A stretch of 22,539 nt of DNA from a virus, in the UHGV virus genome UHGV-0018397. One strand, 5' to 3'. The first letter of the stretch is position 1; every line of letters begins with the position of its first letter. Under the pieces are notes generated by a model. The model was not told the DNA's origin and made no database searches. It saw only the letters and a list, made by a program, of their open reading frames with translations. Positions 60 through 6,891 of this stretch are shown here, in pieces. The position numbers and the translations under genes were made by a program.

Positions 60-1115
60 ATGATCGGGGAAGACCCAAATATAAACAGTGTTGAGTTAGT
101 CAACGCTGATAGCCTGCAATACATCGCCACTCTCCCTGATAACTCCATTGACCTGATAGTCACGGATCCGCCGTACTTCAAAGTGAAACCCAACGGCTGG
201 GACAATCAGTGGAAAGGGGATGAGGATTATCTTCGCTGGCTTGATATGTGCCTCGCACAATTCTGGCGAGTGCTTAAACCTGCTGGCAGTCTTTATCTTT
301 TCTCCGGTCACCGCCTGGCGGCAGACATTGAGATCATGATGCGTGAGCGGTTCAACGTCCTGAACCACATCATCTGGGCTAAACCGTCGGGCCGCTGGAA
401 TGGCTGTAATAAAGAGAGTCTGCGCTCTTACTTCCCTGCAACAGAGCGCATCCTCTTCGCTGAGCATTACCAGGGGCCGTATAAACCAAAGAGCGACGGT
501 TACGCGGAGAAGGGAAGCGAGCTGAAGCAGCATGTAATGACTCCCCTAATTTCTTATTTCCGGGATGCACGTGAAGCGCTTGGCATAACCTCAAAACAAA
601 TAGCCGATGCGACTGGAAAGAAGAACATGGTGTCTCACTGGTTCAGCGGTAGCCAGTGGCAATTACCGAATGAATTAGACTACCGGAATCTTCAGTCCCT
701 TTTCACGCAGGTAGCCATCGAAAAGCACCAGAACGGCGAACTGGCAACACCACACCACCAGCTGGTGGCTATGTGGCATTCGTTAAATCGCAAGTATTCA
801 GAGCTGCTCGAAGAGTACAAATCGCTTCGGCGGCATTTCTCTGTTTCCGTATCCGTTCCTTATACCGACGTCTGGACACATAAACCCGTTCAGTTTTACC
901 CAGGTAAACACCCATGCGAAAAACCCGCTGACATGTTGCGGCAGATCATCAACGCCAGCAGTAAGCCTGGTGATGTGGTGGCTGATTTCTTTATGGGGTC
1001 CGGTTCGACCGTGAAAATCGCGCTGGAACTTGGCCGCCAGGCTATCGGCGTTGAACTCGAGGAGGACAGGTTTAGCCAGACGGTGGAGGAAATAAGGGCG
1101 TTAACAGGGGAATAA
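60..1115 (+). CDS. DNA methyltransferase (N6-adenine/N4-cytosine family, beta-class motif order), probable phage orphan methylase
   Basis: N-terminal catalytic motif IV (SIDLIVTDPPYF) and C-terminal SAM-binding motif I (FFMGSGST). The frame is also open upstream to the window start, so the true start could lie 5' of ATG 60. Confidence 0.85.
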   Translation: MIGEDPNINSVELVNADSLQYIATLPDNSIDLIVTDPPYFKVKPNGWDNQWKGDEDYLRWLDMCLAQFWRVLKPAGSLYLFSGHRLAADIEIMMRERFNVLNHIIWAKPSGRWNGCNKESLRSYFPATERILFAEHYQGPYKPKSDGYAEKGSELKQHVMTPLISYFRDAREALGITSKQIADATGKKNMVSHWFSGSQWQLPNELDYRNLQSLFTQVAIEKHQNGELATPHHQLVAMWHSLNRKYSELLEEYKSLRRHFSVSVSVPYTDVWTHKPVQFYPGKHPCEKPADMLRQIINASSKPGDVVADFFMGSGSTVKIALELGRQAIGVELEEDRFSQTVEEIRALTGE

Positions 1116-2571: not shown

Positions 2572-3132
2572 TTAACGATTTTCTGGATGCACTCTCGCGT
2601 TGAGTGTATCGATAAAATCATGTTTAGTAATGCCCACATTGTGAACCCAATTCTTAGCTCTGGCAGGAAGGAAAACTTCAAGCATACGTTGGTAAATTGC
2701 AACAGAGGGCATGTGAGAGTTCCGGGTGAGATCGTCTTTGCCGCTAAACCGTCCCATTCGTTTCAATAAACTACCAATCAAAAGAAACTTTGATTCGTTG
2801 TTACCGTCAAATCCGGGGAATGTGAGTGATAATTTCTCATCGAAATTACGAATAGATTTGGCAACCTCTGCTTTGTCTTCCGCACTGAATCGTTCGTATG
2901 TGTATTGGAGAATGTCATACATATCATAGGTATCAACGAAAAGCTGGACTTCCCAGGGGGTCTCCTCTTCTTCATCTTGAAGGCCTGGGTATTCCCAGGA
3001 TAAAGCCCAGTAGTTATCCGTGCTCACTGCTTCGTCAATGAGGTCAGGATCAAATGAGTTTTCAATTTCTAATGCTCGGTGAATATCACTGAGCATCATG
3101 ATCTGTAGTTTTTCTTGCTGTGAGTATTTCAT
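2572..3132 (-). CDS. YfbU-family (UPF0304) protein, reverse-strand moron
   Basis: 186 aa; recalled similarity to E. coli YfbU blocks (EKLQIMMLSDIH, LTFPGFDGNNESKFL, YQRMLEV). AAGGA ribosome-binding site 8 nt before the ATG. Opposite strand to all flanking phage genes and visibly more AT-rich. Confidence 0.7.
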   Translation of the reverse strand: MKYSQQEKLQIMMLSDIHRALEIENSFDPDLIDEAVSTDNYWALSWEYPGLQDEEEETPWEVQLFVDTYDMYDILQYTYERFSAEDKAEVAKSIRNFDEKLSLTFPGFDGNNESKFLLIGSLLKRMGRFSGKDDLTRNSHMPSVAIYQRMLEVFLPARAKNWVHNVGITKHDFIDTLNARVHPENR

Positions 3133-3147
3133 TCTAAATTCCTTGAA

Positions 3148-3176
3148 TTAATAGAGCGTTGATACTGCGTTATCAA
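3148..3176 (-). promoter_or_regulatory. Candidate sigma70 promoter for the YfbU-like gene, overlapping an inverted repeat
   Basis: On the minus strand TTGATA-N17-TATTAA about 12-15 nt upstream of the ribosome-binding site; on the plus strand TTGATA-ctgcgt-TATCAA (3159-3176) is a perfect 6-bp inverted repeat covering the -35. Confidence 0.35.
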
Positions 3177-3219
3177 AGATACATCTGATTAAATAGTTTT
3201 CAAGAAACTGAGGGTTAAA

Positions 3220-4218
3220 ATGGCAAAACCGGACTGGGGATCACTGCAACACCAGTTCCTCGCCGAGCATGCTAAATCCGGTATTTCCCCCAAAGACTGG
3301 TGTGAAGCGCGGGGGCTGAATTACACATCTGCGCGGCGCTATATCAAAAAGCCAACTGCGCAAAAAAATGCGCAGAAGAAAGTGCGCAATGCGCAGACTG
3401 AACAAGCCCCTACCACTGCGCAGTATGAGCAATCCTCAACTGATGCGCAGACCGATATACAGGAAAGTGCGCAACCCTTCAACCTGCGCAATTACGGCCT
3501 TAACGATATGCAGATCAGGTTTGTCGAAGAGTATCTTCTCGATCTGAACAGGACCGCTGCATACAAGCGAGCTGGCTATAAAGGTGAAGGAAATACGGCT
3601 TACGTTAACGCCTCGCGCCTGCTAAGAAATGCTAAGGTCAGCCAGGCAATCCGCGACGCGCTGGACGAACGCTCGCGAAGAGTGAAGATAACGCAGGACG
3701 AAGTGTTGAAATGGTGGTGGGACATTGCGACGGCAGACGCTACGCAACTTACTGAACATCACCGCGGCTGTTGCCGTTACTGCTGGGGACTCGATTTTAA
3801 CTACCAGTGGCGCGATGCAGTTGAGTTTGAGGAAGCGGAAGAAAAGGTTAAGGGGAAGGAAGGTGCCATGCAGCCTAAGGATACGGGCGGCTACGGCTAC
3901 GACGGCACACTGGACCCGAACCCGGATTGCCCCCGCTGCAATGGCGTTGGTCTGAGCCGTCCTGTTTTCCACGATACACGAGATTTGAAGGGCGCAGAAC
4001 GCCGCCTTTTTGCCGGGATTAAAGAGGGCAAATTTGGCCTTGAAATGATCACCCGCAATCAGGATGAGGCTATGAAGATGGTCGCACAACACCTCGGCAT
4101 GCTGAAAACCAAAACTGAGTTAAGCGGCCCGAATGGTGAGCCCATACAGCATAATCACACAGTAAGCGCGGAGGATCTGACTGATGAGCAGCTCGCCGCA
4201 ATTATCGCTGGTAAGTAA
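3220..4218 (+). CDS. Terminase small subunit (Terminase_2-like core with N-terminal HTH-like extension)
   Basis: Core matches the recalled Terminase_2 pattern (MQIRFVEEYLLDLNRTAAYKRAGYKGEGNTAYVNASRLLRNAKV); N-terminal putative HTH (ISPKDWCEARGLNYTSARRYI); directly upstream of the large terminase; GAGGG ribosome-binding site. Confidence 0.85.
   Translation: MAKPDWGSLQHQFLAEHAKSGISPKDWCEARGLNYTSARRYIKKPTAQKNAQKKVRNAQTEQAPTTAQYEQSSTDAQTDIQESAQPFNLRNYGLNDMQIRFVEEYLLDLNRTAAYKRAGYKGEGNTAYVNASRLLRNAKVSQAIRDALDERSRRVKITQDEVLKWWWDIATADATQLTEHHRGCCRYCWGLDFNYQWRDAVEFEEAEEKVKGKEGAMQPKDTGGYGYDGTLDPNPDCPRCNGVGLSRPVFHDTRDLKGAERRLFAGIKEGKFGLEMITRNQDEAMKMVAQHLGMLKTKTELSGPNGEPIQHNHTVSAEDLTDEQLAAIIAGK
3357..3490. 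repeat. Array of eight TGCGCA palindromic hexamers within the 5' part of terS
   Basis: TGCGCA at 3357, 3369, 3383, 3390, 3417, 3444, 3468 and 3485, read directly from the sequence; six fall in the xxT-GCG-CAR (Ala-Gln) frame and two in a different frame. Confidence 0.8.
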
Positions 4219-5602
4219 GCAGGAAGCAGCGGCCGAGTTACTCAAACGACGCAATGCGCGGGCAAGCCTCCACGACTTCATTCAGTACATTAATCCCGAA
4301 TACATCACCAGCAAGTTCTCTCAGACGGTCTGCGACGCTCTGGATCAGTTCCTGCTGGATATGATGAACGGGCTGCGCCCGATACTGATTCTCGGTGCGC
4401 CGCCGCAGCATGGTAAATCGGATATCGTTTCGCGTTACCTGCCAGCGTATTTCTTCGGAAAATATCCTGAAATGCGCGTGGGCGCTTTGTCGTACTCCGC
4501 TGACCTTGCCGGGGACATGAACGCCGATGTTCAGCGCATTATGTCCACGCCGGAATACCGCAACATATTTCCGGGTGCCTGGTTGGGAAATAAGCCGGCT
4601 GATGGTGTGGCCGTAAAGCGTAACACTGACGAATTCGGTATAGCCAACCATAAGGGAACGTATGTCTGTGCGGGCGTAGGCGGCCCGTTAACAGGTAAGA
4701 AAATCGATCTCGGTATCATCGATGACCCGATAAAAAACGCCAAAGAAGCACTCAGCCCGACGACCAAAAAATCTATCTGGAACTGGTACGTTTCCACGTT
4801 TAAAACGCGTCTGTCGAAAAACAGCGGCGAAATCATCATGGCGACCCGCTGGGCGACAGATGATTTATCCGGGCGTGTGGTGGAAATCACGCCGCGCGCT
4901 AAGGTGCTGGCGTTCCCTGCAATCAACGAGCAGGGTGAAGCGCTGGTGCCTGAACTGCACCCGAAAGAAAAGCTGCTCGAAACCAAAACCATTCTCGGGG
5001 ATTACTTCTGGTCTGCGATGTATCAGCAGTCACCAAAACAGGCCGGCGGCTCAATCTTCAAAGACGAGTGGATCAAGTATTACCTCCCGAAAGACTTGCC
5101 GACCAACTTCGATATTGTCGTCCATAGCTGGGATATGACCTTCAAAGACAGCGAGGGCACCGACTACGTTGTCGGGCAGGTATGGGGGAAAAAAGGCGCC
5201 AATGCTTATCTGCTTCACCAGGTGCGCGCGCGCATGAGCTTTACCGCAACACTCAAAGCCGTTAAACGCATGGCCGACGAATACCCCAAAGGCCTGCGCA
5301 AGCTGGTGGAGGATAAAGCCAACGGCCCGGCGGTTATTGATTCACTGAAAAGCACCGTAGCAGGACTCGTTCCCGTTGAACCGGACGGCAGCAAAGTCGC
5401 CCGGGCGCATGCGATCACCGCTGTATGGGAAGCAGGTAACGTTTTCCTTCCCCATAAAGACATCGCACCGTGGATCACTGAGACGGTCGAGGAAATTACC
5501 ACGTTCCCTGTCGGCGCGAACGATGACGTTGTCGATGCAATGACACAGGGACTACGCGATTTGTATCAGAGAAAAACACTCAGCCCACTGGACATCATGT
5601 AA
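4184..5602 (+). CDS. Terminase large subunit (ATPase plus nuclease)
   Basis: Walker A-like LILGAPPQHGKSD, Walker B-like DLGIIDDP, C-terminal nuclease-type acidic motif (VGANDDVVDAMTQG); 472 aa; overlaps the terS end. Confidence 0.85.
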   Translation: MSSSPQLSLVSKQEAAAELLKRRNARASLHDFIQYINPEYITSKFSQTVCDALDQFLLDMMNGLRPILILGAPPQHGKSDIVSRYLPAYFFGKYPEMRVGALSYSADLAGDMNADVQRIMSTPEYRNIFPGAWLGNKPADGVAVKRNTDEFGIANHKGTYVCAGVGGPLTGKKIDLGIIDDPIKNAKEALSPTTKKSIWNWYVSTFKTRLSKNSGEIIMATRWATDDLSGRVVEITPRAKVLAFPAINEQGEALVPELHPKEKLLETKTILGDYFWSAMYQQSPKQAGGSIFKDEWIKYYLPKDLPTNFDIVVHSWDMTFKDSEGTDYVVGQVWGKKGANAYLLHQVRARMSFTATLKAVKRMADEYPKGLRKLVEDKANGPAVIDSLKSTVAGLVPVEPDGSKVARAHAITAVWEAGNVFLPHKDIAPWITETVEEITTFPVGANDDVVDAMTQGLRDLYQRKTLSPLDIM

Positions 5603-6891
5603 TGACGAGAAAAAATATCGTTGGTCGTCTGAATGATGGCCTGGTTAGCTTAATGACTTCGCTCGGCGAGAAGATTGGCGCAGTGCGGTATAGCAGCAGT
5701 AAGCCTGACGTACCTGATAAAGAGCTGCTCGCGATGTATAAAAAATCGTGGGTGGTGAAAAAGTACATCAACAAAACCGCCGACGACATGCTGAAGTTGC
5801 CCCGTAAATTTTCGGGCGACGTCGATAGCTCCATAACCAAACGCATCGCTGACGCTGAAAAAGAACTGAAATTAAACGCAGTCTTTCACAGCGCGCTGGG
5901 ATGGGCCTCTCTGTTGGGTGACTCGCTAATCGTGGCTATCACGGATTGTGCTGATGACCAGATAGCCTTGCCGCTCAATTTGCAGAGCGAAGATATCGTT
6001 AAATTCCTGGTGTTCCGTAAAGGGGAGTACACGCCGGACAGTAATGTCATCACCGACATACGTTCGGACTGTTTTGGTGAGCCGCTGACGTATCAACTTG
6101 ATGTCGGGACGAAGCAACTCAGGTTTCATCATTCCCGCTGCTGCCGGACAAAGCTGGGCAATCACAGCATTAAGGATCGCGCAAAGTTTGGCACGTCAGA
6201 CCTTCAGGCGCCCTATGAGCATATCAAAACCTTCGACACAGCAATCCTCAGCACCGGAGACACCATACAGGAGGCAAACGTCGATGTGCTGTTTATCCCC
6301 GGCATGAATAACCAGATCGCAGCGGGTCAGGAAGGGCAGGTGCGCGAATACGCCAGGGTGATGAAGGAAACTAAATCCTCAACCGGGCTGCTGCTAATTG
6401 ACGCTGGTGATACAACATCTCAAGGGCGCTATGAGCAGAAAAACGCGCAATTTACCGGACTGTCGGATGTGATCAGCAAAATGGCGATTGTACTGGCCGG
6501 TGCTCTGGACAGGCCCATAACGGTTCTGTTTGGTGAGTCTGCCAGCGGGTTCAGCAGCGGAGAGGAAGACAATAAATCCTATTACGAGACGATTAACGGA
6601 CTTCAGGAGTCCCGGCTTCGTCCAATGCAGGATTTCGCCGACCAGTTCACGCTGGATAAACTCGCCATAACGGAAAGCCTTACCTACGAATACCCGACAA
6701 TCGACAGTATTAATGAGGCTGACGAAGCTAACCGGTTTAGCCAGTACGCCACCGGATTTAATACGCTGGTAACGGGTTCAATCCTGACGGAAGAAGTTGC
6801 TATCAGGGAAATGATAAACCGGGGCGTACTGAAGACGGTCACCGAAGCAGAAATTAAGGCGATTGTCGCAGGGGGTGGCACATGGACCTGA
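5602..6891 (+). CDS. Portal protein (putative)
   Basis: 429 aa between terminase large subunit and head morphogenesis gene; start overlaps the TerL stop (TAATG). Called by position and size, not by a recognised motif. Confidence 0.65.
   Translation: MTRKNIVGRLNDGLVSLMTSLGEKIGAVRYSSSKPDVPDKELLAMYKKSWVVKKYINKTADDMLKLPRKFSGDVDSSITKRIADAEKELKLNAVFHSALGWASLLGDSLIVAITDCADDQIALPLNLQSEDIVKFLVFRKGEYTPDSNVITDIRSDCFGEPLTYQLDVGTKQLRFHHSRCCRTKLGNHSIKDRAKFGTSDLQAPYEHIKTFDTAILSTGDTIQEANVDVLFIPGMNNQIAAGQEGQVREYARVMKETKSSTGLLLIDAGDTTSQGRYEQKNAQFTGLSDVISKMAIVLAGALDRPITVLFGESASGFSSGEEDNKSYYETINGLQESRLRPMQDFADQFTLDKLAITESLTYEYPTIDSINEADEANRFSQYATGFNTLVTGSILTEEVAIREMINRGVLKTVTEAEIKAIVAGGGTWT

Follow-up and report, generated by a model that had tools for sequence, protein, structure and literature searches.

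Packaging (pac) sites have been determined by experiment in just a few headful phages. In phage SPP1, the pac site (pacL and pacR) overlaps the terS region and contains repeated boxes bound by the small terminase subunit, TerS, and in phage lambda the R sites of cosB, which are bound by the winged helix-turn-helix (HTH) of gpNu1, anchor the terminase beside the cut site. Phage P1, for which a pac site was reportedly described by Sternberg and Coulby in 1987, encodes Dam, as do the Shiga toxin (Stx) phages, and both have hexamers that contain GATC. The experimentally defined pac site of P1 is a 161-bp segment inside pacA that holds seven TGATCA/G hexamers in two clusters (HEX4 and HEX3), an IHF site, and points of cleavage between the clusters, and synonymous recoding of these hexamers lowers P1 packaging (PMC10028697). 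P22 and Sf6 are headful phages in which the packaging signal also lies within the terS coding sequence (PMC11226127, PMC11260489). Here, we analyzed a 22,539-nucleotide stretch of viral DNA (UHGV virus genome UHGV-0018397, referred to in full as the window), which matches a prophage of E. coli VE-F5 at 100% identity and in which the 5' part of terS carries an array of TGCGCA hexamers. We consider it likely, though short of certain, that this array is a P1-type pac or TerS recognition site inside terS that uses a hexamer lacking GATC. A pac site made of hexamers and placed inside the recognition subunit's gene has been on record for P1 since 1987, and the TGCGCA array is most readily understood as the P1 device with a word that differs in its two central bases.

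A preliminary description of this DNA had reported eight palindromic TGCGCA copies within 134 bp, where fewer than one would be expected by chance. We confirmed this count. The remaining 22.4 kb of the window contains only 6 other copies, a rate that predicts 0.035 copies per 134 bp (Poisson P for at least eight copies, ~5e-17). Thus, the genome-wide count that the description had proposed as a check shows no comparable density of TGCGCA in the window outside the array. The total of 14 copies is unremarkable compared with shuffled sequences (9.7 +/- 2.9), so the signal is one of clustering and not of overall abundance. The array occupies nucleotides 138 to 271 of terS, and with its eight copies in 134 bp the window holds at least seven copies of one hexanucleotide within ~160 bp. 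The clustering of TGCGCA in the 5' part of terS is real (Table 1 lists the positions and spacings of the copies).

The product of this gene, which is annotated as a terminase small subunit in the identical VE-F5 prophage, has a Terminase_2 domain at amino acids 94 to 300 (98.3 bits, against a Pfam gathering cutoff of 26.1), and terS, terL, and the portal gene follow one another in a late operon, as for a Terminase_2 small terminase. Within this core, amino acids 92 to 153 weakly matched two TerS DNA-binding domains of solved structure, 4zc3 and 2cmp (E values of 0.12 to 0.18). The N-terminal extension that precedes the core is not covered by Pfam. In an AlphaFold2 model built on a shallow alignment, amino acids 1 to 45 form an HTH-like bundle (helices at 6 to 20, 24 to 30, and 35 to 42; pLDDT, 76 to 88) with a predicted recognition helix at amino acids 35 to 42 (YTSARRYI), and no secondary structure is predicted for amino acids 45 to 95 (pLDDT, ~50). 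Because the predicted helices end at amino acid 42, amino acids 45 to 95 lack predicted structure, and the canonical TerS HTH starts at amino acid 94, the array lies in the coding DNA of a predicted flexible linker that joins an extra HTH to the ring-forming Terminase_2 core.

The alignment used for this model came from a homologue search with the 48-amino-acid HTH, which returned only fragments of 30 to 84 amino acids, the products of frameshifted or truncated terS open reading frames, and which did not reach PacA. At least 62 clusters of such "TerS" fragments in public databases have the HTH in common and then shift frame or terminate within the array (for example, ending in KKCALRRK), and the same is seen at loci L069, L079, and L086. 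The array region contains runs of five to seven A residues (positions 3362 to 3368 of the window are A7). These fragments could reflect homopolymer sequencing errors, real pseudogenes, or slippage.

Protein and DNA searches placed the N-terminal HTH in phages or prophages of E. coli, Klebsiella, Salmonella, Yersinia, and Aeromonas and in ~200 Stx-phage records. Scanning of viral contigs yielded 561 confirmed matches, 80 of which were fetched for analysis, and our comparison of loci covers 83 distinct loci. We call those with the sequence ARRYIK in the HTH R-type (54 or 55 distinct loci, as two counting scripts differ) and those with AKRYIK K-type. In all ARRYIK loci, TGCGCA is the commonest hexamer of gene nucleotides 120 to 450, with 5 to 10 copies, and in nearly all of them the first copy lies at nucleotide 138. 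The density of TGCGCA in R-type loci is 24/kb between gene nucleotides 126 and 410, compared to 0.29/kb in the flanks. In one group of relatives from Klebsiella, E. coli, and other hosts (layout B), 5 or 6 hexamers are followed by 3 more ~160 bp downstream. Among 13 close relatives, column identity is 97% in the hexamers, compared to 88% in the rest of the linker, 91% in the HTH-coding part, and 88% in the core. Individual sites do turn over between close relatives, with gains at gene nucleotides 207 and 237 and losses at 164, 171, and 198, while the total stays between 6 and 9. The preliminary description had asked whether the hexamers are kept in terS genes of divergent protein sequence, and we found that they are, both where the proteins are only 39 to 47% identical and where the TerS cores are unrelated. 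Judged from these alignments, the array is preserved across divergent terS genes.

Two of the 80 IMG/VR contigs end at the edges of the array, L133 at terS nucleotide 135 and L102 at terS nucleotide 390. We considered these ends as evidence of physical DNA ends and set them aside, since assembly breaks at a shared mosaic HTH module are the likelier cause.

Six of the eight hexamers in the window are framed xxT-GCG-CAx, within codons for TAQ, NAQ, NAQ, TAQ, DAQ, and SAQ, and the other two are framed xTG-CGC-Axx, within codons for VRN and LRN. This is exactly as first described, namely, six copies that encode Ala-Gln with T at the preceding wobble position and two in another frame. All 6 Ala-Gln dipeptides of the array stretch are spelled by TGCGCA. 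When codons 45 to 93 were resampled synonymously from the window's own codon usage with the protein held fixed, the mean was 0.92 hexamers and the maximum was 6 in 100,000 trials, compared to the 8 observed. Across the R-type loci, TGCGCA likewise falls into two reading frames, with 277 copies in one and 88 in the other, and tripeptides of the form X-Ala-Gln/His are spelled with TGCGCA in 283 of 299 cases (95%) inside the array, compared to 10 of 145 (7%) elsewhere in terS and in terL. The earlier claim that the hexamer is maintained at the DNA level is thus borne out by the resampling, by the use of two frames, and by the spelling of tripeptides across relatives. We conclude that selection acts on the DNA and not on the peptide, and this locus illustrates cleanly how an overlapping DNA signal can dictate the sequence of a protein linker.

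The preliminary description had also likened the array to the pac site of P1, and we found the resemblance to be closer than was stated, as a PacA-like HTH is encoded just upstream of the array and the P1 hexamers stand at the equivalent place in pacA. The HTH domain of the window matched the PacA family profile phrog_1711 with an E value of 4e-5. Against phrog_370, a TerS family, the E value was 4e-5 for P1 PacA and 8e-20 for the window domain. In a profile comparison with hhalign, the HTH family aligned with the N termini of PacA from P1 and Cronobacter phage JK004 over 41 columns (probability, 91.8%; E value, 7e-7), with amino acids 5 to 45 placed against PacA 2 to 42, including LNYxSARRYIK against LNPNTARRYLR. 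On this evidence, the N-terminal HTH is probably homologous to the N terminus of P1 PacA. In P1, the array lies at pacA nucleotides 194 to 352 and starts 68 nucleotides after the HTH, and its hexamers are spaced 7, 12, and 15 bp apart in HEX4 and 12 and 11 bp apart in the other cluster and occur in two reading frames. The PacA of JK004 is 58% identical to that of P1 over the 131 N-terminal residues queried. JK004 has hexamers at 6 of the 7 P1 positions, and its linker peptide is altered to NDQKRDQKKRDQ, the Asp-for-Ala counterpart of TAQKNAQKKVRNAQ in the window.

The HTH and the array are found together in front of proteins that otherwise differ. The TerS bodies downstream of the array vary in length (235, 246, 250, 262, 321 to 347, and 364 amino acids) and are either Terminase_2 variants or without a Pfam match, and the TerL partners are Terminase_3, Terminase_6N, or without a Pfam match. 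Many E. coli prophages share with the window only the first 129 to 146 nucleotides of terS. The hexamer itself differs between lineages of the HTH. All AKRYIK loci have TGCGAA(T) instead of TGCGCA, together with 12-bp palindromes, TGCGAATTCGCA, at gene nucleotides 144 and 177, and the density of the K-type array is 12/kb, compared to 0.5/kb in the flanks. This sister lineage includes L001:598-642, L005:1632-1675, and 21 other loci, among them Klebsiella phage RothC and Yersinia vB_YenM phages. Aeromonas phage phiARM81mr, in which the corresponding helix reads SARRYLK, has 7 TGCGCA copies. In Stx phage 933W (NTARTRIK), four YGATCAT repeats that encode KIDHEIDHKTDHEIDH occupy the same place as the array. 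The N-terminal HTH encoded by 933W terS (L090:1630-1690; AF125520, ~28905-28965) is 49% identical, and the repeats directly follow it. Each of them holds a Dam GATC, as P1 pac does, and the 933W array is a candidate Dam-sensitive pac site for ~200 Stx-phage records with the same TerS.

For a test in the reverse direction, we scanned viral contigs for three closely spaced TGCGCA copies and examined the first 120 loci. In 76 of these 120 loci, the HTH domain ends 0 to 11 nucleotides before the first hexamer. The remainder includes several contig-truncated copies or phrog_1206 TerS genes with a more divergent N-terminal HTH, as well as about 10 ordinary tandem repeats in GC-rich DNA. Across the loci that we compared, the array travels strictly with the HTH module, and this includes the lineage-specific hexamers. 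TGCGCA triplets were also seen in the 5' part of phrog_1206 small-terminase genes and in an HTH gene directly upstream of TerL (L178:1982-2584, L248:241-873 on the minus strand, L291, L265, and L290:1959-2462 on the minus strand). The recognition helices at these loci (ESTLRKRI, ESSIRYKA, and DNTVKKIC) are quite different, so the word TGCGCA recurs with divergent readers. In addition, intergenic arrays of 5 to 7 TGCGCA copies were observed at L260:1892-1960, L285:9752-9830, L225:10006-10080, L202, and L274; beside these five, we found no PacA-like HTH or recognizable terminase gene. Such intergenic arrays could be operators or separate pac sites.

One candidate determinant of specificity is the R39K difference that separates the TGCGCA lineage from the TGCGAA lineage in the predicted recognition helix. 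We considered a one-residue code, in which R39 would specify C and K39 would specify A, and found it only partly tenable, since the ARRYL of P1 reads TGATCA and phrog_1206-type TerS proteins with divergent helices carry TGCGCA. A broader reading is that the HTH and its own array form a self-contained, portable "pac cassette" of ~300 bp that has been grafted onto unrelated TerS cores and TerL proteins and has diversified its word, and we give this an even chance of being correct. Under the same reading, the words of the cassette would be TGATCA (P1), YGATCAT (Stx phages such as 933W), TGCGCA, and TGCGAAT, having arisen partly via changes in the recognition helix such as R39K.

In the mechanism that we propose for the array, a flexible linker of 48 residues would connect the PacA-like HTH of TerS to the ring-forming Terminase_2 core that follows it, and several HTH domains of one TerS oligomer would bind several hexamers simultaneously. 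Such binding to multiple sites would lead to high avidity and to specificity for phage concatemers. The ring of Terminase_2 HTH domains may contribute nonspecific wrapping; for comparison, the SF6 TerS HTH is reported to contact DNA independently of sequence (PMC4737164). TerL would then be recruited and would cut at or near the array, from which headful packaging would run. The window terL product, over 93% of its length, shares 37% identity with its Aaphi23 counterpart, and its relatives as judged by sequence similarity also include cluster-B mycobacteriophages. The DNA of Aaphi23 shows circular permutation together with terminal redundancy (PMC3556154), and such TerL relatives make headful packaging plausible for this phage. 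We infer that the N-terminal HTH reads the hexamers, that cleavage takes place at the array, and that packaging is headful.

As a reading of the sequence, the candidate pac or TerS recognition array of the preliminary description is supported by each of the checks that were run, which were the density of the hexamers and their conservation in divergent terS genes. Several observations weigh against it. A narrow local hidden Markov model of the HTH ranked PacA first among the P1 open reading frames, with an E value of only 0.2, the homology to PacA is based on ~41 aligned residues, and a Foldseek comparison of the HTH model with the PDB returned only nonsignificant HTH matches (IstA, Pax, and Tc3). 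The word in the window is TGCGCA and not TGATCA/G, and it contains no Dam GATC, so the Dam-dependent control of cleavage that operates in P1 cannot apply. The IHF consensus WATCARNNNNTTR was not found anywhere in the window, and no match within one mismatch was found at 3300 to 3620. Unlike in P1, the right-hand hexamers of the window are loose, giving four tight and four loose copies without a tight HEX3 or two clusters. P1 and phiARM81mr share ARRYL and differ in their hexamers, which leaves no simple one-residue code, and only ~4 lineages underlie the association of HTH lineage with hexamer, a small number of evolutionary events and not a statistical proof. Finally, a literature search of incomplete coverage, and hence weak as evidence, returned no report linking TGCGCA to packaging, nothing on TGCGCA arrays or the pac site of this TerS family, and nothing on the spread of a PacA-like HTH-array module to Terminase_2 TerS proteins or Stx phages.

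The hexamers could also be binding sites, for the TerS HTH or for another protein, that serve a role other than packaging, such as autoregulation of terS and terL or, as short repeats, the promotion of recombination where the HTH module meets the variable TerS core. The array does lie exactly at the mosaic junction where nucleotide identity among prophages drops, and arrays of sites within the 5' part of a gene can serve as operators. However, the homologous module of P1 is experimentally a pac site (PMC10028697), TerS proteins are known as the subunits that recognize pac or cos, and the retention of 5 to 10 copies in every lineage, with a word that is specific to the lineage, fits recognition of DNA by a protein better than it fits recombination repeats. 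We therefore regard a nonpackaging role as unlikely.

Recognition in packaging might instead be carried out by the Terminase_2 HTH of the SPP1/SF6 type (amino acids 94 to 150), or by TerL, and not by the N-terminal HTH. TerS does possess this second, conventional DNA-binding domain, and the second hexamer cluster of the layout-B relatives falls in the DNA that encodes it. Against this, arrays follow the N-terminal HTH in proteins whose cores are not Terminase_2 (the K-type TerS proteins of 246 and 250 amino acids, 933W, phiARM81mr, and P1 PacA), and the hexamer word tracks the lineage of the N-terminal HTH and not the type of core. The contacts reported for the SF6 TerS HTH are also sequence independent (PMC4737164). 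This makes reading by the second HTH or by TerL improbable, to a greater degree than a nonpackaging role.

A function in RNA is slightly less probable again. The palindromic hexamers might act in the terS mRNA, with copies that pair into hairpins and modulate translation or stability, or as terminator-like hairpins on the antisense strand. Positions 3345 to 3500 fold at -46.6 kcal/mol (z = -3.75 relative to shuffled sequences), and seven terminator-like hairpins are found in 2900 to 3600, compared to 0.6 expected, three of which are antisense pairs of hexamers with an A/T run. These three lie on the minus strand within 3356 to 3395 and consist of hexamer pairs with the intervening A-run, for example, CTGCGCATTTTTTTGCGCAG followed by a T-rich tail; they are probably a by-product of the palindromes. 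Stable hairpins arise automatically from repeated GC-rich palindromes, however, and the sister lineage has nonpalindromic TGCGAAT in single copies beside its palindromes. The positions of the hexamers turn over freely at a kept copy number, which is ill-suited to a defined RNA fold, and compensatory changes are not visible because the hexamers are invariant.

The proposal that the hexamers simply mirror a peptide repeat of low complexity, rich in Ala-Gln/Lys, combined with codon bias or replication slippage, and have no role at the DNA level can draw on the six of eight copies that encode Ala-Gln and on the simple composition of the linker, but it is effectively refuted by the resampling, which never gave 8 copies, by the use of two frames and the spelling of tripeptides across the family, and by the persistence of the hexamers while the linker peptide drifts.

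The remaining features of the region are collected in Table 1. The overlap of terS and terL spans 35 nucleotides (4184 to 4218) in different frames, and overlaps of 20 to 35 nucleotides are seen in several relatives. A YfbU-family gene (2572 to 3132, minus strand) is wedged between the lysis genes (DUF2514, 1956 to 2546) and terS. Few related prophages carry it, a distribution suggestive of a moron-like insertion just upstream of the packaging genes. Further upstream, the gene at 60 to 1115 (plus strand) encodes a methyltransferase that matches Pfam N6_N4_Mtase and has an HTH_3-like segment inserted at amino acids 168 to 198. Its NCBIfam scores are far under every cutoff, the best being for a YhdJ-like adenine methylase model. 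We considered this enzyme as a substitute for Dam and rejected it, since a homologue occurs within 10 kb of the array gene in only 5 of 48 R-type loci and in none of the 22 K-type loci, so the methyltransferase gene resembles an accessory gene of independent origin or function.

Table 1. Features of terS and the neighboring packaging genes, in window coordinates
Feature	Position	Strand	Basis or details
terS, small terminase subunit, 332 amino acids	3220..4218	+	Pfam Terminase_2, E value 7.6e-28; phrog_51 terminase small subunit, E value 2e-71
Coding region of the extra N-terminal HTH domain (amino acids 1-45, PacA-like)	3220..3354	+	AlphaFold2, hhalign, and PHROG matches
Coding region of the TerS linker (amino acids 46-93), predicted to be unstructured; contains the entire array	3355..3498	+	pLDDT ~50
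Tight left cluster, 4 TGCGCA	3357..3395 (3357, 3369, 3383, 3390)		Spacings 12, 14, 7 bp
Looser right group, 4 TGCGCA	3417..3490 (3417, 3444, 3468, 3485)		Spacings 27, 24, 17 bp
TGAGCA, one-mismatch hexamer	3426..3431		Gene nucleotide 207; perfect TGCGCA in relatives L025 and L060 (alignment)
Coding region of the Terminase_2 core (amino acids 94-300), canonical SPP1/SF6-type TerS HTH at ~amino acids 94-150	3499..4119	+	Pfam
terL, large terminase	4184..5602	+	Pfam Terminase_6N and 6C; nuclease/ATPase
Portal	5602..6891	+	Gene order after terL

A pac signature that can be read from sequence in a large group of prophages of E. coli, Klebsiella, Salmonella, Yersinia, and Aeromonas would predict where generalized or lateral transduction starts. 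It would also help in designing minimal packaging signals, both for phagemids and for transducing particles, as has been achieved with P1 through recoding of the hexamers (PMC10028697). If the cassette reading is true, the pac sites of hundreds of enterobacterial prophages, including those of Stx phages, could be predictable from sequence alone, and packaging specificity could be reprogrammed by swapping the cassette. The GATC-containing array in 933W-type Stx phages suggests Dam-linked control of packaging in medically important phages, and the module would be a natural setting in which to study changes of DNA word by an HTH.

Among the known systems, lambda would resemble the window in having several copies of an element that is bound by the HTH of TerS. 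Its R sites differ in that they are 16 bp long, three in number, intergenic, and assisted by IHF in a cos (fixed-end) system. P22 and Sf6 would share with the window a packaging signal embedded in the small terminase gene. The P22 pac site, in contrast, is a single asymmetric element of ~17 to 22 bp with no array of short palindromes, and the TerS proteins of P22 and Sf6 are without a PacA-like HTH. In ES18, for which packaging initiation has been mapped, we found neither the HTH domain in TerS nor an array, and its pac site is still unknown (PMC11260489). With the SPP1/SF6 group, the window shares the type of its TerS core, which is, like G1P, a Terminase_2 domain with a canonical HTH, and the SPP1 pac site overlaps terS and holds repeated boxes, as the array of the window would. 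G1P lacks the 93-residue N-terminal extension with its PacA-like HTH and linker, however, and the SPP1 boxes are longer, whereas the repeats in the window are exact 6-bp palindromes.

The closest of these systems in the array itself is P1. The two differ downstream, as the body of the window TerS is a Terminase_2 core and not a PacA body, and its partner is not recognizably of the PacB type (no detectable similarity of TerL to PacB by BLASTP; E values of 0.38 or more). In the arrangement of sites, the two clusters of the layout-B relatives come closer to the P1 design than the array of the window does. In both P1 and the window, 7 or 8 copies of a 6-bp palindrome occupy ~130 to 160 bp in the 5' portion of the recognition subunit's gene, and the array begins just after the part that codes for an N-terminal HTH, the two HTH domains being probably homologous. 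In both, the hexamers are mainly framed xxT-NNN-CAx and use two frames, the spacings in the tight cluster are similar (7, 12, and 14 to 15 bp), and the hexamers are kept while the linker peptide drifts, as JK004 illustrates on the P1 side.

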